Shown: piece by piece, positions 4,284 through 21,785 of the stretch
Layout of the letters: each line of letters begins with the position of its first letter
How positions within the stretch are numbered: position 1 is the stretch's first letter
DNA from: Escherichia coli
GTDB lineage: Bacteria; Pseudomonadota; Gammaproteobacteria; Enterobacterales; Enterobacteriaceae
NCBI RefSeq assembly: GCF_016026235.1
Contig: NZ_CP065613.1
Length of the DNA: 64,000 nt
Direction: 5' to 3' (one strand)
Notes under the pieces: model-generated
The model's input: only the letters and a program-made list of their open reading frames with translations
Told to the model about the DNA's origin: nothing
Databases searched by the model: none
Translations under genes and position numbers: made by a program

Positions 4284-6428
4284 ATGTCTAACGTGCAGGA
4301 GTGGCAACAGCTTGCCAACAAGGAATTGAGCCGTCGGGAGAAAACTGTCGACTCGCTGGTTCAGCAAACCGCGGAAGGGATCACCATCAAGCCGCTGTAT
4401 ACCGAAGCCGATCTCGATAATCTGGAGGTGACAGGTACCCTTCCTGGTTTGCCGCCCTACGTTCGTGGCCCGCGTGCCACTATGTATACCGCCCAACCGT
4501 GGACCATCCGTCAGTATGCTGGTTTTTCAACAGCAAAAGAGTCCAACGCTTTTTATCGCCGTAACCTGGCCGCCGGGCAAAAAGGTCTTTCCGTTGCGTT
4601 TGACCTTGCCACCCACCGAGGCTACGACTCCGATAACCCGCGCGTGGCGGGCGACGTCGGCAAAGCGGGCGTCGCTATCGACACCGTGGAAGATATGAAA
4701 GTCCTGTTCGACCAGATCCCGCTGGATAAAATGTCGGTTTCGATGACCATGAATGGCGCAGTGCTACCAGTACTGGCGTTTTATATCGTCGCCGCAGAAG
4801 AGCAAGGTGTTACACCTGATAAACTGACCGGCACCATTCAGAACGATATCCTCAAAGAGTACCTCTGCCGCAACACCTATATTTACCCGCCAAAACCGTC
4901 AATGCGCATTATCGCCGACATCATCGCCTGGTGTTCCGGCAACATGCCGCGATTTAATACCATCAGTATCAGCGGTTACCACATGGGTGAAGCGGGTGCC
5001 AACTGCGTGCAGCAGGTAGCATTTACGCTCGCTGATGGGATTGAGTACATCAAAGCAGCAATCTCTGCCGGACTGAAAATTGATGACTTCGCTCCTCGCC
5101 TGTCGTTCTTCTTCGGCATCGGCATGGATCTGTTTATGAACGTCGCCATGTTGCGTGCGGCACGTTATTTATGGAGCGAAGCGGTCAGTGGATTTGGCGC
5201 ACAGGACCCGAAATCACTGGCGCTGCGTACCCACTGCCAGACCTCAGGCTGGAGCCTGACTGAACAGGATCCGTATAACAACGTTATCCGCACCACCATT
5301 GAAGCGCTGGCTGCGACGCTGGGCGGTACTCAGTCACTGCATACCAACGCCTTTGACGAAGCGCTTGGTTTGCCTACCGATTTCTCAGCACGCATTGCCC
5401 GCAACACCCAGATCATCATCCAGGAAGAATCAGAACTCTGCCGCACCGTCGATCCACTGGCCGGATCCTATTACATTGAGTCGCTGACCGATCAAATCGT
5501 CAAACAAGCCAGAGCTATTATCCAACAGATCGACGAAGCCGGTGGCATGGCGAAAGCGATCGAAGCAGGTCTGCCAAAACGAATGATCGAAGAGGCCTCA
5601 GCGCGCGAACAGTCGCTGATCGACCAGGGCAAGCGTGTCATCGTTGGTGTCAACAAGTACAAACTGGATCACGAAGACGAAACCGATGTACTTGAGATCG
5701 ACAACGTGATGGTGCGTAACGAGCAAATTGCTTCGCTGGAACGCATTCGCGCCACCCGTGATGATGCCGCCGTAACCGCCGCGTTGAACGCCCTGACTCA
5801 CGCCGCACAGCATAACGAAAACCTGCTGGCTGCCGCTGTTAATGCCGCTCGCGTTCGCGCCACCCTGGGTGAAATTTCCGATGCGCTGGAAGTCGCTTTC
5901 GACCGTTATCTGGTGCCAAGCCAGTGTGTTACCGGCGTGATTGCGCAAAGCTATCATCAGTCTGAGAAATCGGCCTCCGAGTTCGATGCCATTGTTGCGC
6001 AAACGGAGCAGTTCCTTGCCGACAATGGTCGTCGCCCGCGCATTCTGATCGCTAAGATGGGCCAGGATGGACACGATCGCGGCGCGAAAGTGATCGCCAG
6101 CGCCTATTCCGATCTCGGTTTCGACGTAGATTTAAGCCCGATGTTCTCTACACCTGAAGAGATCGCCCGCCTGGCCGTAGAAAACGACGTTCACGTAGTG
6201 GGCGCATCCTCACTGGCTGCCGGTCATAAAACGCTGATCCCGGAACTGGTCGAAGCGCTGAAAAAATGGGGACGCGAAGATATCTGCGTGGTCGCGGGTG
6301 GCGTCATTCCGCCGCAGGATTACGCCTTCCTGCAAGAGCGCGGCGTGGCGGCGATTTATGGTCCAGGTACACCTATGCTCGACAGTGTGCGCGACGTACT
6401 GAATCTGATAAGCCAGCATCATGATTAA
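4284..6428 (+). CDS. scpA: Methylmalonyl-CoA mutase (Sbm/ScpA)
   Basis: ORF trimmed to MSNVQEWQQ...; GGAG RBS at 4274..4277; B12-binding DxHxxG region ([10 protein letters not shown]). Confidence 0.93.
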
Positions 6429-16105: not shown

Positions 16106-17125
16106 TTACCTGAAAGCAACAGTAGCCATAGCTAACGTCGTGTCGAGCATTCGGTTAGCAAAGCCCCATTCGTTATCGCACCAGACCAACGTTTTGATCA
16201 GGTGTGCGCCACTGACCCGGGTTTGGGTGCCATCGACAATGGCACTGTGCGGATCGTGGTTAAAATCTACAGAGACCAACGGCAATTCCGTATAGTCAAC
16301 TATACCATGAAATGCACCTTGTGCTGCTTTTTGCAGCAACAGGTTGACTTCATTGGCTTTTACAGGTTTCTTCACCGTCACGCTTAAATCGATTGCCGTC
16401 ACATTTATGGTTGGCACACGTACCGCAATCGCTTCAAAGCGATCGTTAAATTGCGGAAAAAATCGTGTGATACCGGCGGCCAGTTTAGTATCGACCGGAA
16501 TGATCGACTGGCTGGCTGCCCGAGTGCGACGCAGGTCAGGATGGTATGCATCAATAACCTGTTGATCGTGCATGGCGGAGTGAATTGTGGTCACTGTGCC
16601 GGACTCAATACCGTACGCATCATCTAACAATTTGATGACGGGAATTATGCAATTCGTGGTACAGGAAGCGTTAGAAACGATGCGGTGTTCCGCACGAAGT
16701 TGATCCTGATTGACGCCGTAAACAACGGTCGCGTCGAGATCGTTACTGCCAGGATGTGAAAAGAGCACTTTTTTGGCCCCAGCGGCAATATGCGCTTCGC
16801 CATGCTCGCGGGAGCCATATACGCCGGTGCAGTCGAGGACTACATCAACGCCAAGTTCACGCCAGGGGAGCGATTGCAGTGAACGTTCATGCAATACGCG
16901 GATGGCGTCATCACCAACAAAAAGTTGATCGCGTTCCTGTCGTACTTCCCATGCAAAACGGCCATGGCTGGTGTCATATTTCAACAAATGCGCCATGCCC
17001 GCAGCATCCGCCAGTTCGTTGATTGCCACCACGGTAATTTCCGCCCGGCGTCCGGATTCATACAAAGCACGAACCACATTACGCCCGATGCGACCGAAGC
17101 CATTTATCGCTACGCGTACGGTCAT
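16106..17125 (-). CDS. epd: D-erythrose-4-phosphate dehydrogenase
   Basis: ORF trimmed to [15 protein letters not shown]...; 339 aa. Confidence 0.95.
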
Positions 17126-17496
17126 AGATCTCCTGCAAGGTTTTCCCTGAGCAAATTTGCCAGACAGAGTAATCCAGCAAATCGTCCGGGGAAACCTTAC
17201 CTGTCGCAAACTGCGACTGATTGGTTAATTGTCGAACATTTAATCGACTGAAACGCTTCAGCTAGGATAAGCGAAACGTGGAATAAAAGGAATGATTGTC
17301 CAGTCAAAGAAAGCAATTATCTGACTTACGTCACGTTTTCAGCCCCGCCCCTGTGGAATTTATTCCACTTTGCAGAATCACGAATAAGCGTAGCAAAATC
17401 TTTTCGTTGTGCCGTCACAAACCCTGACTTATATCAGAATATGACTGATGCAGCGTCGATATTATCCGCAATACGTCCGAGTTTCGGAGTACTCCA

Positions 17497-17928
17497 ATGA
17501 TGACATTGCCCTACCCATATTCTTCCTCCGCACGCTTTTACGCACTGCGCCTCCTCCCTGGGCAGGAAGTTTTTTCCCAGCTACACGCTTTTGCACAGCA
17601 GCATCAACTTCATGCCGCCTGGATTGCAGGCTGTACCGGTAGCCTGACTGACGTCGCCTTGCGCTATGCCGGGCAAGAAGGCACCACGCTCCTGAACGGT
17701 ACATTCGAAGTGATCTCACTAAACGGCACGCTGGAACAGAGTGGTGAGCATCTTCATCTCTGCGTTTCCGATCCACACGGCACGATGCTTGGCGGTCATA
17801 TGATGCCCGGCTGTACCGTGCGGACCACGCTTGAACTGGTGATCGGTAGCCTTGAGGAACTGGCGTTTAGCCGCCAACCTTGCGCGCTTTCTGGTTACGA
17901 CGAGTTGCATATTTCCCCCGTTAAATAA
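17497..17928 (+). CDS. DUF296 / PCC-domain-like protein (about 143 aa), first gene of the accessory cluster
   Basis: Resembles PCC-domain proteins by my recognition; no HMM was run; GGAG 9 nt upstream of ATG. Confidence 0.6.
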   Translation: MMTLPYPYSSSARFYALRLLPGQEVFSQLHAFAQQHQLHAAWIAGCTGSLTDVALRYAGQEGTTLLNGTFEVISLNGTLEQSGEHLHLCVSDPHGTMLGGHMMPGCTVRTTLELVIGSLEELAFSRQPCALSGYDELHISPVK

Positions 17929-17950
17929 CTACTTTCAAAGAGGTTTTCTT

Positions 17951-18529
17951 ATGGCGCGTAGCCACTTTTCCAGTCAGGCACTGGTGTTGATCGTTATATC
18001 TATCGCCATCAATATGATCGGCGGGCAACTGGCCAGCATGGTCAAATTACCTATATTTCTCGACTCCATCGGCACACTTATTAGCGCGGTACTGCTTGGT
18101 CCGGTGATCGGAATGCTGACCGGCTTACTGACCAATTTACTCTGGGGATTGCTGACCGACCCGATCGCCGCCGCATTTGCACCCGTCGCGATGGTCATCG
18201 GCCTGGTCGCCGGTTGGCTGGCGCGAGCGGGTTGGTTTCGCACCCTGCCAAAAGTCGTTGTCAGCGGCGTGATTATTACGCTTGCGGTAACGGTCGTCGC
18301 TGTACCGCTGCGTACTGCGCTGTTCGGCGGTGTCACCGGTAGCGGAGCCGATTTGTTCGTTGCCTGGATGCACTCGATGGGGCAAAACCTGGTGGAGTCG
18401 GTGGCGATTACGGTGATAGGCGCGAACCTGGTCGATAAAATTCTTACAGCGGTGATTGTCTGGCTTTTACTGCGCCAGCTGCCGATTCGCACCACGCGCC
18501 ATTTTCCGGCAATGGCTGCCGTGCGCTAA
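17951..18529 (+). CDS. Small polytopic membrane protein, putative ECF-transporter substrate-capture (S) component
   Basis: ORF trimmed to ATG 17951 (AAGAGG RBS at 17936..17941); about 192 aa, very hydrophobic; sits immediately before the T component. Confidence 0.55.
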   Translation: MARSHFSSQALVLIVISIAINMIGGQLASMVKLPIFLDSIGTLISAVLLGPVIGMLTGLLTNLLWGLLTDPIAAAFAPVAMVIGLVAGWLARAGWFRTLPKVVVSGVIITLAVTVVAVPLRTALFGGVTGSGADLFVAWMHSMGQNLVESVAITVIGANLVDKILTAVIVWLLLRQLPIRTTRHFPAMAAVR

Positions 18530-19237
18530 ATGCATCCATTTACCTCATTAACACTGTGGGCATTGGCGGCCTGCACCACGCTTATCCTGCCCGCGCAGAC
18601 CATTTTGCCGATCTATAGCGCGGCGACCTTTTTCTGCCTTATTGCGCTAAAGGCCACGCGGCGGCGGGCAAAATATGTCGTCTGGCTGATGTTCTCGCTG
18701 GGAGCCGGGCTGTGGCTGGTACACGGTGGCTGGCTACCAGAATGGCTAAGCGGCACGCCACGCTCGCCAGAACGGTGGTCGCATGCTATTACGCTCTGGT
18801 TGCGGATTCTGGCGATTGTTTCAACCTCACAGTTGTGGATGCAGTACGTCCCCGTGCAATGTTTTATTCGCGCTCTGTTTGCTTCTCGCCTGCCGCCAGG
18901 CGTCGCTTATCTGTTTGCCGGGCCGTTATTGGTCGTTGAGCAGTTAAAACGGCAATTAGCGATTATTCATGAAGCGCAGCGTGCCCGCGGCGTGTCGCTG
19001 GATGAGGGCTGGTATCAGCGTTTACGTGCGATGCCCGCGTTAATTATTCCGCTAACACACAATGCGCTTAACGATCTGGCTGTCCGTGGTGCGGCGCTGG
19101 ATATGCGGGCATTTCGGATCCACAACCGACGAACAACGTTGTGGGCACCAGCCGATAGCACCCTACAACGCGTAGCGCGTTACACCATGATCTTGCTGAT
19201 GCTGACAGAATTCGGAGCGTGGATATGGTTACGTTAG
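18530..19237 (+). CDS. ECF-transporter transmembrane (T) component, CbiQ/EcfT-like
   Basis: 235 aa; Ala-Arg-Gly coupling motif in QRARGVS; start abuts the previous stop. Confidence 0.7.
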   Translation: MHPFTSLTLWALAACTTLILPAQTILPIYSAATFFCLIALKATRRRAKYVVWLMFSLGAGLWLVHGGWLPEWLSGTPRSPERWSHAITLWLRILAIVSTSQLWMQYVPVQCFIRALFASRLPPGVAYLFAGPLLVVEQLKRQLAIIHEAQRARGVSLDEGWYQRLRAMPALIIPLTHNALNDLAVRGAALDMRAFRIHNRRTTLWAPADSTLQRVARYTMILLMLTEFGAWIWLR

Positions 19238-19902
19238 AACAGTTCCGTTATTGCCCGACACACTCAACGCATCCTCCGTTCTGTTATGACTTTCACTATG
19301 TCAAACCGGGGATGGTCGCCATCTTTGGTGACAACGGCAGTGGCAAAAGTACGCTGGCACAGCTGATGGCGGGCTGGTATCCGGACTTTCTGCCAGGAGA
19401 GATAACAGGCACGGGGACGCTCCTCGGTACGCCCATTGGGCATCTCCCGCTTAATGAACAATCCGCCACCATCCAGCTCGTCCAGCAATCGCCCTATTTG
19501 CAGCTCTCCGGCTGTACCTTTAGCGTGGAAGAAGAAGTTGCCTTTGGGCCAGAAAATCTGTGTCTTGCTGAAGCAGAGATTATGGCGCGGATTGATGCCG
19601 CCCTGACTCTGACCGAGTGCCAGCCGTTGCGCCATCGTCACCTGGCAACACTCTCCGGTGGAGAGACACAGCGCGTGGTCATCGCCTGCGCCATCGCGAT
19701 GCAGCCAAAGCTCTTAATTCTTGATGAAGCCTTTAGCCGCCTGACTCCGCAGGCCAGCGAAATGCTGTTGCAGCGCTTACAACACTGGGCGTTTGAACGT
19801 GGTTCGCTGATTATTCTTTTTGAACGTCATCGCACACCTTTCCTGAACTACTGCCAGCAAGCGTGGCAATTGCAAAACGGAGCGCTCCAGCCACTATGTT
19901 AA
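19219..19902 (+). CDS. ABC ATPase (ECF A component) with canonical motifs
   Basis: Walker A GDNGSGKST, signature LSGGETQR, Walker B LLILDEA. Confidence 0.8.
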   Translation: MDMVTLEQFRYCPTHSTHPPFCYDFHYVKPGMVAIFGDNGSGKSTLAQLMAGWYPDFLPGEITGTGTLLGTPIGHLPLNEQSATIQLVQQSPYLQLSGCTFSVEEEVAFGPENLCLAEAEIMARIDAALTLTECQPLRHRHLATLSGGETQRVVIACAIAMQPKLLILDEAFSRLTPQASEMLLQRLQHWAFERGSLIILFERHRTPFLNYCQQAWQLQNGALQPLC

Positions 19903-20573
19903 CGTTAAATAAGATATCTTATCGCTGGCCTGGCGCGGCAACGGATTGTCTTTGCGACATTTCTCTGCAACTCAAACAAGGTGAATGGTTGGCGCTGACC
20001 GGCGACAATGGCGCGGGAAAATCGACGCTGTTACGAGTAATGGCAGGTCTTCTTACGCCCACAGCCGGTACGGTTATGCTGCAACAACAGGCGATGAAAA
20101 ACCTGAAAAACCGCCAGCGCGCGGCAAAGGTTGGCGTACTGTTTCAGGAAGCGGAAAACCAACTTTTTCACAGCACCGTCGCTGACGAGATCGCATTTGG
20201 TTTGAAACTGCAAAAATGCCCGGCGGATGAAATCACTCAACGTACCCATGCTGCCCTGCAATGTTGTCAGTTAGCAGACACTGCCAACTCGCACCCGTTG
20301 GATCTGCATAGTGCGCAGCGACGGATGGTCGCCGTCGCCTGCCTGGAAGCACTCTCTCCGCCACTATTACTGCTGGACGAGCCGAGTCGGGATTTTGACG
20401 AAAATTGGTTGAGCGTGTTTGAAAGCTGGCTGGAGAAGTGCCGCCAGCGAGGCACGAACGTGGTAGCAATCAGTCATGACGCCGCATTTACCCGGCGTCA
20501 TTTCTCTCGTGTGGTGCGACTGGAAGATGGTGTAATCAGGAACGTTAATCCACCAGACGATATTCACCCGTAG
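19896..20573 (+). CDS. ABC ATPase (ECF A' component) with degenerate signature motif
   Basis: Walker A GDNGAGKST, Walker B LLLLDEPS, H-loop SHD, but LHSAQRR in place of LSGGQ; ATG overlaps the previous stop (ATGTTAA). Confidence 0.75.
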   Translation: MLTLNKISYRWPGAATDCLCDISLQLKQGEWLALTGDNGAGKSTLLRVMAGLLTPTAGTVMLQQQAMKNLKNRQRAAKVGVLFQEAENQLFHSTVADEIAFGLKLQKCPADEITQRTHAALQCCQLADTANSHPLDLHSAQRRMVAVACLEALSPPLLLLDEPSRDFDENWLSVFESWLEKCRQRGTNVVAISHDAAFTRRHFSRVVRLEDGVIRNVNPPDDIHP

Positions 20574-21258
20574 CGGTCATCATTAAGGTCAAATTTGCAG
20601 GCAGACTCTCTTCCAGCACCCGGCGAACATTCGGCCCGTCGGTACGGTCATAAAAGGCTTCTGCATCTGCCAGCGATACCCCTCCCGCCAGCTTGCGCCC
20701 CACCAGACGCTCCCGCAACGCAGTAGCTGGCGCGTTGATAAAGATCGAGAAATCACAAAATTGCGCAAGCTGGCACCACTTCTCGTCGTCCAGCAACAAC
20801 CAGTTTCCTTCGACGATGACGAGTGGTGCGGTAACGTGCAACGCATCTTCAACAGGATCATGCTTTTGTCGATCGTACTGCGGCCACGTACAATCCCCTT
20901 CCACCACCTGGCGCAGATTTTCCGCCAGTTTCGCAACGTCAAATGTCTCTGGTGCGCCTTTGAAGGGGCGCAATTGATGCGCGTCCAGCCAGCTATTGTA
21001 ATGGTGAAAACCATCCATCGGGAGCGTCTGAATAGCGGGTAGTTCCGGGTCTTGTTGCGCGAGATATTCCCAGAAGGTGGTTAGGGTAGATTTACCCGTC
21101 CCCGGCGGAGCGCAAAGAAAAACTACCGTACGCCGCTGTGGATTTACCGTCTGTAAGGCCGCCAACATGCGCAGCAACGGTTTATGTACATTTTCTATTT
21201 CATCATCAGAGTACTGAGCCTGTACCTTTAGTCCATTCACCGTCAGTTCGATTTTCAC
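20545..21258 (-). CDS. yggC: P-loop kinase-like protein
   Basis: 237 aa, Walker A GTGKST. Confidence 0.9.
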   Translation of the reverse strand: MKIELTVNGLKVQAQYSDDEIENVHKPLLRMLAALQTVNPQRRTVVFLCAPPGTGKSTLTTFWEYLAQQDPELPAIQTLPMDGFHHYNSWLDAHQLRPFKGAPETFDVAKLAENLRQVVEGDCTWPQYDRQKHDPVEDALHVTAPLVIVEGNWLLLDDEKWCQLAQFCDFSIFINAPATALRERLVGRKLAGGVSLADAEAFYDRTDGPNVRRVLEESLPANLTLMMTATGEYRLVD

Positions 21259-21764
21259 GGCGTTAATTCCTTTAAGGTGGTCGTTACTGCCAGCGTCAGC
21301 GCCGTTTTGACCATTCCGCTAAAACGCGCCTCTGACCAGACGGCGAAATCGGCGAACTTCATCGCTTTCAACGCGTCATAGAGCGTCGCATTGCGGGTTA
21401 TGCTATTGACGTTGCTGATAAAATCCCAGGTCATGTCATCGGCAAATCCGGGCATTTCATCCTGTTCGTTCAGGTAATGCCAGAACTGGGAAAAATGCGT
21501 GATATCGGCGTACAGCCATTTATCCATTTTCCCCAGCGCATAAATCAAACGCAGCGCAACATCAATATCGTCAAGCGGGCCGCTTTGGGCGAGTAACGGC
21601 TTCACTGCATATTCGACGATCTCTTCATCGTTATCGACAAAGAGCGACGGCAGAAACTGGCGTATCCCCTGGAGCAAAATAGAATGCGCAGTTTTCATAA
21701 ATGAAAATAAATTGTCCTGTGCATCCAGTTGCTCAAGCACATCATCTTCTGTCAGCGTCGCCAT
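21255..21764 (-). CDS. yggD: MtlR-like transcriptional regulator
   Basis: 169 aa, recognised sequence. Confidence 0.9.
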   Translation of the reverse strand: MATLTEDDVLEQLDAQDNLFSFMKTAHSILLQGIRQFLPSLFVDNDEEIVEYAVKPLLAQSGPLDDIDVALRLIYALGKMDKWLYADITHFSQFWHYLNEQDEMPGFADDMTWDFISNVNSITRNATLYDALKAMKFADFAVWSEARFSGMVKTALTLAVTTTLKELTP

Positions 21765-21785
21765 TGGTCTTCCGATAGATCACCA

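Follow-up and report, generated by a model that had tools for sequence, protein, structure and literature searches.

A tail-to-tail overlap between an ECF-type ATPase gene and yggC in Escherichia coli is probably inherited from a junction shared across several genera

The 3' ends of two convergent genes of Escherichia coli, an ECF-type ABC ATPase gene (here A') and yggC, overlap by 29 bp in the 64,000-nucleotide stretch of contig NZ_CP065613.1 that we analysed (the window). We consider it likely, with a probability of roughly 0.8, that this is a genuine tail-to-tail overlap that has been inherited from the abutting of two gene blocks without a spacer. The junction would go back to before Escherichia, Salmonella, Citrobacter and Superficieibacter diverged, with the relative reading frame of the two genes probably fixed by descent. 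The genes in the window are ordered fbaA-pgk-epd, a five-gene plus-strand cluster that ends with A', and then yggC-fumE(yggD)-glpX(yggF)-yggP-cmtA-cmtB-tktA on the minus strand, such that yggC is the last gene of the compact minus-strand string cmtB-cmtA-yggP-glpX(yggF)-fumE(yggD)-yggC. The coordinates of these and other features are collected in Table 1.

Table 1. Features at and around the A'/yggC junction, given as positions in the window.
Feature	Position	Strand	Evidence or remark
Segment separating cluster-bearing from K-12 haplotype	17335..20778	.	K-12: 75-bp AT-rich spacer plus divergent yggC 3' end
PPC/PCC-domain protein, first cluster gene	17497..17928	+	PF03479 6.7e-29
ECF S component	17951..18529	+	PF12822 1.5e-8; NF045596 8.8e-40
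ECF T component, CbiQ-like	18530..19237	+	PF02361 9.4e-5, 22.6 bits (gathering cut-off 25); PGAP name
ECF-type ABC ATPase A	19225..19902	+	PF00005 1.2e-21
A', ECF-type ABC ATPase, 225 aa, last of five cluster genes	19896..20573	+	Pfam ABC_tran 1e-27; NCBIfam ECF_ATPase_2 5.6e-44; PGAP
Hairpin, 9-bp perfect stem and 8-nt loop, ATGACGCCG-CATTTACC-CGGCGTCAT	20476..20501	-	Inside A' CDS; no U-tract
Non-conserved A' C-terminal tail, residues 213-225, VIRNVNPPDDIHP	20532..20570	+	Beyond ABC nucleotide-binding fold
Convergent overlap	20545..20573	.	Last 9 A' codons and stop opposite last 8 yggC codons and stop
Haplotype-specific yggC 3' third, gene nt 481-714	20545..20778	-	About 60% identical to K-12 type, 96% to cluster-bearing E. 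albertii
yggC, nucleoside/nucleotide kinase family, 237 aa	20545..21258	-	NF006742 5.9e-158, 1-237/237; annotation

By ORF coordinates and direct reading of the sequence the overlap occupies positions 20545-20573, with the A' stop codon (TAG, 20571-20573, plus strand) lying inside the yggC open reading frame and the yggC stop codon (TAA, 20545-20547, minus strand) lying inside that of A'. An earlier note on this DNA had described a 29-bp convergent overlap, and this is borne out both by the stop positions and by the RefSeq/PGAP annotation, which has an identical overlap in a 99.9%-identical genome and also in the E. coli copy that, at 95.5% identity, was the most divergent of those sampled. 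PGAP starts A' at 19896 and the first reading took a GTG at 19863, an uncertainty that is irrelevant to the overlap because only stop codons are involved. A 121-bp segment containing the junction was found in 3,319 of 5,426 complete E. coli genomes, each time with at least 95% identity. Both members of the pair are real genes, each includes the stop codon of the other, and the arrangement is conserved across genomes and species.

Database entries include many long convergent overlaps that are artefacts of 3' extension (PMC2478687), and homologues of A' that do not adjoin yggC have shorter tails, as would be expected if the A' frame had been lengthened by a sequencing error, a frameshift or an annotation choice and the true genes did not overlap. 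We regard such an artefact as extremely improbable, as neither stop codon is ambiguous, A' has no in-frame stop ahead of its TAG, and the same 29-bp arrangement recurs in other species as well as in thousands of complete genomes sequenced independently of one another.

The overlapping part of A' lies beyond its conserved fold. Residues 1-212 of A' align to positions 1-213/214 of an FtsE model, and many solved nucleotide-binding domains end at 212-215. Residue 212 of A' is the glycine of 'VVRLEDG' and ends at nucleotide 20531, 13 nt ahead of the yggC stop codon; the overlap comprises the last nine codons of the tail, the first of them partial. Direct reading of the sequence places the A' TAG opposite the Ala-Thr codons GCT-ACG of YggC '...TATGEYRLVD'. 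Among genera the A' tail varies in both length and sequence; in yggC-adjacent loci it extends 10-24 residues past the RLxxG motif, and it is conserved only where it mirrors the conserved 'GEYR' of YggC (for example as D-I-H/R-P). In loci in which A' instead faces tktA the stop codon is 2-15 residues past RLxxG and is followed by a spacer of roughly 50-210 bp in the loci measured. An earlier stop in homologues of the ATPase, which the earlier note named as counting against its reading, is thus found in A' genes that face tktA.

These features suggest how the overlap may have formed. Translation of A' would continue past the end of the fold through the antisense of the last codons of yggC and would end at the first in-frame stop, the TAG opposite GCT-ACG, so that the overlapping residues would form an unconstrained tail and the length of the overlap in each lineage (26-92 bp) would be determined solely by the chance position of a stop. 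In the observed antisense phase, codon positions 1, 2 and 3 of A' are opposite positions 1, 3 and 2 of yggC, as follows from a length of 2 modulo 3. Over the whole of yggC this antisense frame contains 9 stops in 238 codons, and at least 8 codons are open from 68% of positions; an overlap of 29 bp is no larger than chance, given abutting genes. The same phase has been named 'phase 1' and is reported as the commonest among convergent overlaps outside the 4-nt class (preprint 10.1101/2025.11.07.687268).

The cluster that ends with A' contains a dedicated set of ECF transporter genes, with an S component, a T component whose CbiQ match is below the cut-off, and two ABC ATPases. The S component scores 136 bits against the model of the uncharacterised CD3073 family, which it resembles, but falls below the cut-off of 180. 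A and A' are 225 aa each and match the ECF_ATPase models only to about positions 192-231 of 269-279, and the EcfA-type C-terminal helical extension of proteins of about 270-290 aa is absent; EcfA chains with solved structures are 278-300 aa, and A and A' are without the C-terminal domain of roughly 50-60 residues found in characterised EcfA/EcfA' proteins.

To examine the junction in other organisms we scanned with the A' protein, using one genome per species, and obtained 38 loci. The order epd/PPC-S-T-A-A'/yggC-fumE is present in E. albertii, E. whittamii, Salmonella enterica subsp. arizonae and diarizonae and six Citrobacter species, and also in Silvania confinis, two Superficieibacter and one Enterobacteriaceae MAG, with a remnant of the cluster at the position between epd and yggC in Escherichia sp. 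E1V33. In all 17 scan loci in which A' and yggC are neighbours, representing 6 genus-level groups, their 3' ends overlap, as they do in two further loci beyond these, one of S. enterica (L045, 32 bp) and one of E. coli (L049). The overlaps are of 29 bp in Escherichia, 32 bp in Salmonella, 44 bp in freundii-group Citrobacter, 68 bp in C. koseri, 26 bp in Silvania, 41 bp in Superficieibacter and 92 bp in UBA5654. Every one of these lengths is 2 modulo 3, and the relative reading frame of the two genes is thus invariant; such a constant phase argues for a single junction event. The idea that the overlap is peculiar to an insertion in E. coli is contradicted by this survey, in which the overlap is found wherever A' and yggC adjoin.

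The convergent neighbour of the cluster is tktA in 18 loci, including those of the Klebsiella oxytoca group, Kluyvera, several Citrobacter, Silvania hatchlandensis, Pseudescherichia and others. On the other side the cluster adjoins epd in 30 of the 38 scan loci, which span more than 12 genera, and several of the remaining loci are incomplete. Overall, the interval between epd and tktA has four layouts: epd/cluster/tktA, epd/cluster/yggC...cmtB/tktA, epd/yggC...cmtB/tktA (in the K-12 type and Yokenella), and cmtB/cluster/tktA, the last of these seen in Buttiauxella sp. B2 (L032, 1-7800), where the ECF cluster is between cmtB and tktA and not between epd and yggC. The Buttiauxella order indicates that the cluster and the yggC-cmtB block are independently placed modules in the Enterobacteriaceae.

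These data also bear on the proposal in the earlier note that the cluster was inserted flush against, or slightly into, the 3' end of yggC. As a recent E. coli island, with K-12 providing the uninterrupted ancestral site, the cluster would account for its presence in only 3,317 of the 5,426 complete genomes of E. coli, for its slightly higher GC content (55.0%, against 51.7% for the window), and for a homology break between the two forms of the locus that extends into yggC. We nonetheless consider a recent insertion very unlikely. The identical junction, in identical phase, occurs in other genera; the cluster proteins of E. coli are 92-97% identical in amino acid sequence to those of E. albertii and E. 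whittamii, as expected from vertical descent; and the 3' third of K-12 yggC is not orthologous to that of the window. We found no direct repeats flanking the cluster at its boundaries and no tRNA, integrase or other mobility genes, only transporter genes being annotated. The distribution of the cluster is not of the narrow and patchy kind that would be inconsistent with its flanks, as it lies beside epd across more than 12 genera. Insertion flush against the yggC 3' end is contradicted by the junction being conserved across genera and by the non-orthologous K-12 site.

The yggC gene itself gives no indication of having been interrupted. The window YggC is full length, and the K-12-type protein (from J53) has the same 237 aa and aligns with it without gaps, showing that nothing was inserted into the gene. 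In most other genera YggC is 235-238 aa, with downstream neighbours that include an MFS gene (Pseudescherichia), epd (Yokenella) and fbaA (Serratia), and 1,710 homologues were recovered at E<=1e-20. Because YggC has much the same length whatever its neighbour, yggC is neither truncated nor extended. If anything was clipped at the original junction event, it was the end of A' and not yggC. The C-termini of the window and K-12 YggC align at equal length and without gaps, and differ in sequence: identity is about 96% over the first 158 or so residues and 61% over the last 77. We also observed one yggC variant, a 297-aa protein from an ENA metagenome (P0017), in which one base has apparently been lost from the TAA stop codon, adding 60 codons antisense to A', with which the overlap would reach roughly 200 bp. 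This extension could be either a natural frameshift or an assembly error.

The divergence of the YggC C-terminus reflects two forms of the locus. K-12-type DNA matches the window up to position 17334 and then continues into an unrelated, AT-rich spacer of 75 bp (37% GC); from near 20615 a gapped similarity of about 65-70% identity returns, with the last 70 or so nucleotides of yggC unalignable, and high-identity homology returns only near 20778-20787, within yggC. The counterpart positions of this segment are 2636-2944 in L001 and 4481-4789 in both L041 and L043. When yggC of the K-12 type and of the window are compared in 30-nt bins, identity falls from 29-30/30 to 15-24/30 at about nt 480 of the gene, and the same step is seen between cluster-less and cluster-bearing E. 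albertii and between E. fergusonii and the window. Comparing the junction with genomes that lack the cluster therefore did not reveal an empty pre-insertion site, for K-12-type DNA does not match both flanks up to an insertion point; K-12 is not valid as an 'empty site' reference because its yggC has a non-orthologous 3' third.

The cluster form is carried by 3,317 of 5,426 complete E. coli genomes (about 61%), the E. albertii type strain and E. whittamii, and the K-12 form by E. fergusonii, some E. albertii and K-12-type E. coli. The 5' two-thirds of yggC group by species and the 3' third by haplotype. In the 3' third, K-12 types of different species are 88-90% identical to one another and cluster types 89-96%, whereas K-12 and cluster types are only about 60% identical, which is below the value for E. 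coli compared with Citrobacter or Salmonella (about 70%). A breakpoint shared by E. coli, E. fergusonii and E. albertii indicates an old two-form polymorphism, and both forms are present side by side in E. coli and E. albertii at least.

Which of these forms is the older can be considered from the relationships of their yggC 3' ends. In its 3' part the window type shares 96% identity with E. albertii, 89% with E. whittamii and about 70% with Citrobacter and Salmonella. These values track those of its 5' part, and in these comparisons the 3' part behaves as vertically inherited Escherichia DNA. The 234-nt K-12-type 3' part is 57-65% identical to everything outside the K-12 type, and in a neighbour-joining tree it falls outside all cluster-adjacent alleles. 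We did not find a donor for it: a search with the 79-aa fragment returned E. coli fragments only, and a full-length search with per-segment identities gave a best non-Escherichia match of 67% amino acid identity. Yokenella was considered as a relative, as it shares the cluster-less epd/yggC layout, but was rejected, its yggC 3' end (64% nucleotide identity) and its spacer past the stop codon not being specifically related to the K-12 type. From these patterns we conclude that the cluster and the overlap are probably the older state in Escherichia and the K-12 form a derived replacement allele, which would consist of the 75-bp spacer and a foreign-looking yggC 3' third. Less probably, the K-12-type 3' end arose by very fast divergence following an old deletion.

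Deletions of the cluster were seen directly in two genomes. In Escherichia sp. E1V33 (L038, 4550-5300) the equivalent of window positions 17579-20342 has been lost, with about 16 nt that align to both sides, such that part of the 5' end of the PPC gene is fused to the final 231 nt of A', with the 29-bp overlap preserved. Citrobacter sp. Awk 4 (L040) has an internal deletion of the cluster that is independent of that in E1V33. Judged by the E1V33 sequence, in which a remnant of A' is kept, a plain deletion looks unlike the K-12 form.

The K-12-type spacer contains, just past the yggC stop codon (L001, 2646-2706), a 10-bp inverted repeat, TTTATTCCAG and CTGGAATAAA separated by 26 nt, of which nine pairs are kept in E. 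albertii and all are kept in E. fergusonii. The same TGGAATAAA/TTTATTCCA motif is found again in the window, upstream of epd and of the PPC gene (17275-17287 and 17359-17371). The K-12-type inverted repeat could be a protein-binding site.

A further question is how transcription ends at a junction of this kind. The earlier note had remarked that there is no room for separate terminators, and it is correct that there is no spacer and that no intrinsic terminator is predicted; the inference of a flush insertion that was drawn from this is not supported. In a consensus scan we found no intrinsic terminator on either strand in 20130-22000, the sole minus-strand candidate being a weak site at 20127-20111, with a total count of predicted sites at the level of shuffled sequence. 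Folding z-scores of -1.6 to +1.4 gave no unusual RNA fold across the junction, and there was no Rfam or riboswitch match at E<=1 in 16900-21900. GC skew on the plus strand downstream of A' is -0.18 to -0.28, and upstream of 20545 it is +0.13 to +0.18, corresponding to an excess of C over G in the minus-strand RNA. Rho terminates untranslated, C-rich antisense RNA, and C is in excess of G in both read-through strands. Past each stop codon the transcript would enter the antisense strand of the other gene, and the transcript of each operon would then end imprecisely inside the opposite gene, most likely through the action of Rho. The two mRNAs would be complementary at their 3' ends over at least 29 nt.

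The hairpin within the A' coding sequence is located 43 nt downstream of the yggC stop codon on the yggC transcript. It was ruled out as a canonical yggC terminator, having no U-tract, although it may, on weak grounds, be a 3'-end hairpin of the yggC transcript. On average 8.3 of its 9 pairs are kept in yggC-adjacent loci and 7.1 of 9 in other loci, with the loci being phylogenetically non-independent; there is one double change, from CCG/CGG to CTG/CAG, and the hairpin is in part dictated by conserved amino acids of A'. Its somewhat better retention beside yggC is a hint that the RNA of the junction may be under some selection.

These observations raise the possibility that the overlap has been selected as an excludon-like arrangement, in which the ECF and cmt-yggPFDC operons repress each other through collision of RNA polymerases or through RNase III cleavage of a 3' duplex. 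The spacer-less junction in several genera, the lack of a predicted intrinsic terminator, and the 9-bp hairpin with its greater conservation at yggC-adjacent loci and its double change are all consistent with this, and there are precedents in mscL/arfA (PMC10070815) and in the excludon concept (PMC7154746). The architecture of an excludon, convergent units without a terminator between them, is present here by prediction. However, the length of the overlap (26-92 bp) and the sequence of the A' tail drift freely, keeping the junction requires no selection beyond the absence of insertions, and the hairpin signal is weak, drawn from related loci and partly forced by the protein sequence. Any coupling would also be dispensable, as the cluster is frequently lost (in the K-12 type, E1V33 and Citrobacter Awk 4). 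We therefore think selection of this type unlikely, and slightly less likely still is the more elaborate proposition that the junction and the A' hairpin constitute a conserved reciprocal antisense switch between the ECF transporter and the cmt-yggPFDC sugar-phosphate operon, with the two forms maintained as a balanced trans-species polymorphism and not by neutral gain and loss.

An inherited overlap of two abutting gene blocks fits comfortably among known systems. With other short convergent 'phase 1' overlaps of prokaryotes the A'/yggC pair shares real genes on opposite strands, stop codons that lie inside one another's frames, a length below 60 bp and conservation in relatives, as well as an origin by 3' extension of one partner to the next stop. 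Nothing essential differs, although the pair is unusual in being traceable through multiple genera and in combining a variable length with a fixed phase. Among overlaps between well-characterised genes about 7% were convergent (PMC2478687), and A'/yggC is a further example of this well-known class, without the marks of an island. The mscL-arfA pair of E. coli is likewise a tail-to-tail pair of the Enterobacteriaceae in which no terminator intervenes and the 3' region is complementary over an extended stretch, but there it is the 3' UTR of mscL that runs into the coding sequence of arfA, and regulation by antisense was demonstrated experimentally (PMC10070815), whereas the A'/yggC overlap is between coding sequences and is known from sequence. 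Excludons are defined by a reciprocal effect on expression and by RNase III processing (PMC7154746), and the likeness of A'/yggC to them is one of architecture only.

The cluster has been noted previously in E. coli W, as a 'cbiQ-O2 cobalt transport system in the region epd-yggC' that is absent from K-12 and B (PMC3032704). Judged by the stated location, the locus is evidently the one described here and shows the same presence/absence difference; that paper lists the cluster only, and the overlap, the divergent yggC 3' end and the distribution across species are not described there. The 'cobalt' label for the cluster in the literature rests on annotation only, and we found no literature linking yggC with ECF.

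The overlap itself is of little consequence, being of the textbook short convergent type for which no special mechanism is needed. Of practical note is that about 61% of complete E. coli genomes, evidently including that of strain W, carry an uncharacterised ECF transporter, and that termination of the ECF operon within yggC, should it occur as the sequence suggests, would be relevant to engineering or deleting either gene. A trans-species two-form locus with its boundary inside yggC is a modest curiosity for population genomics, and it advises caution in using K-12 as an 'uninserted' reference.
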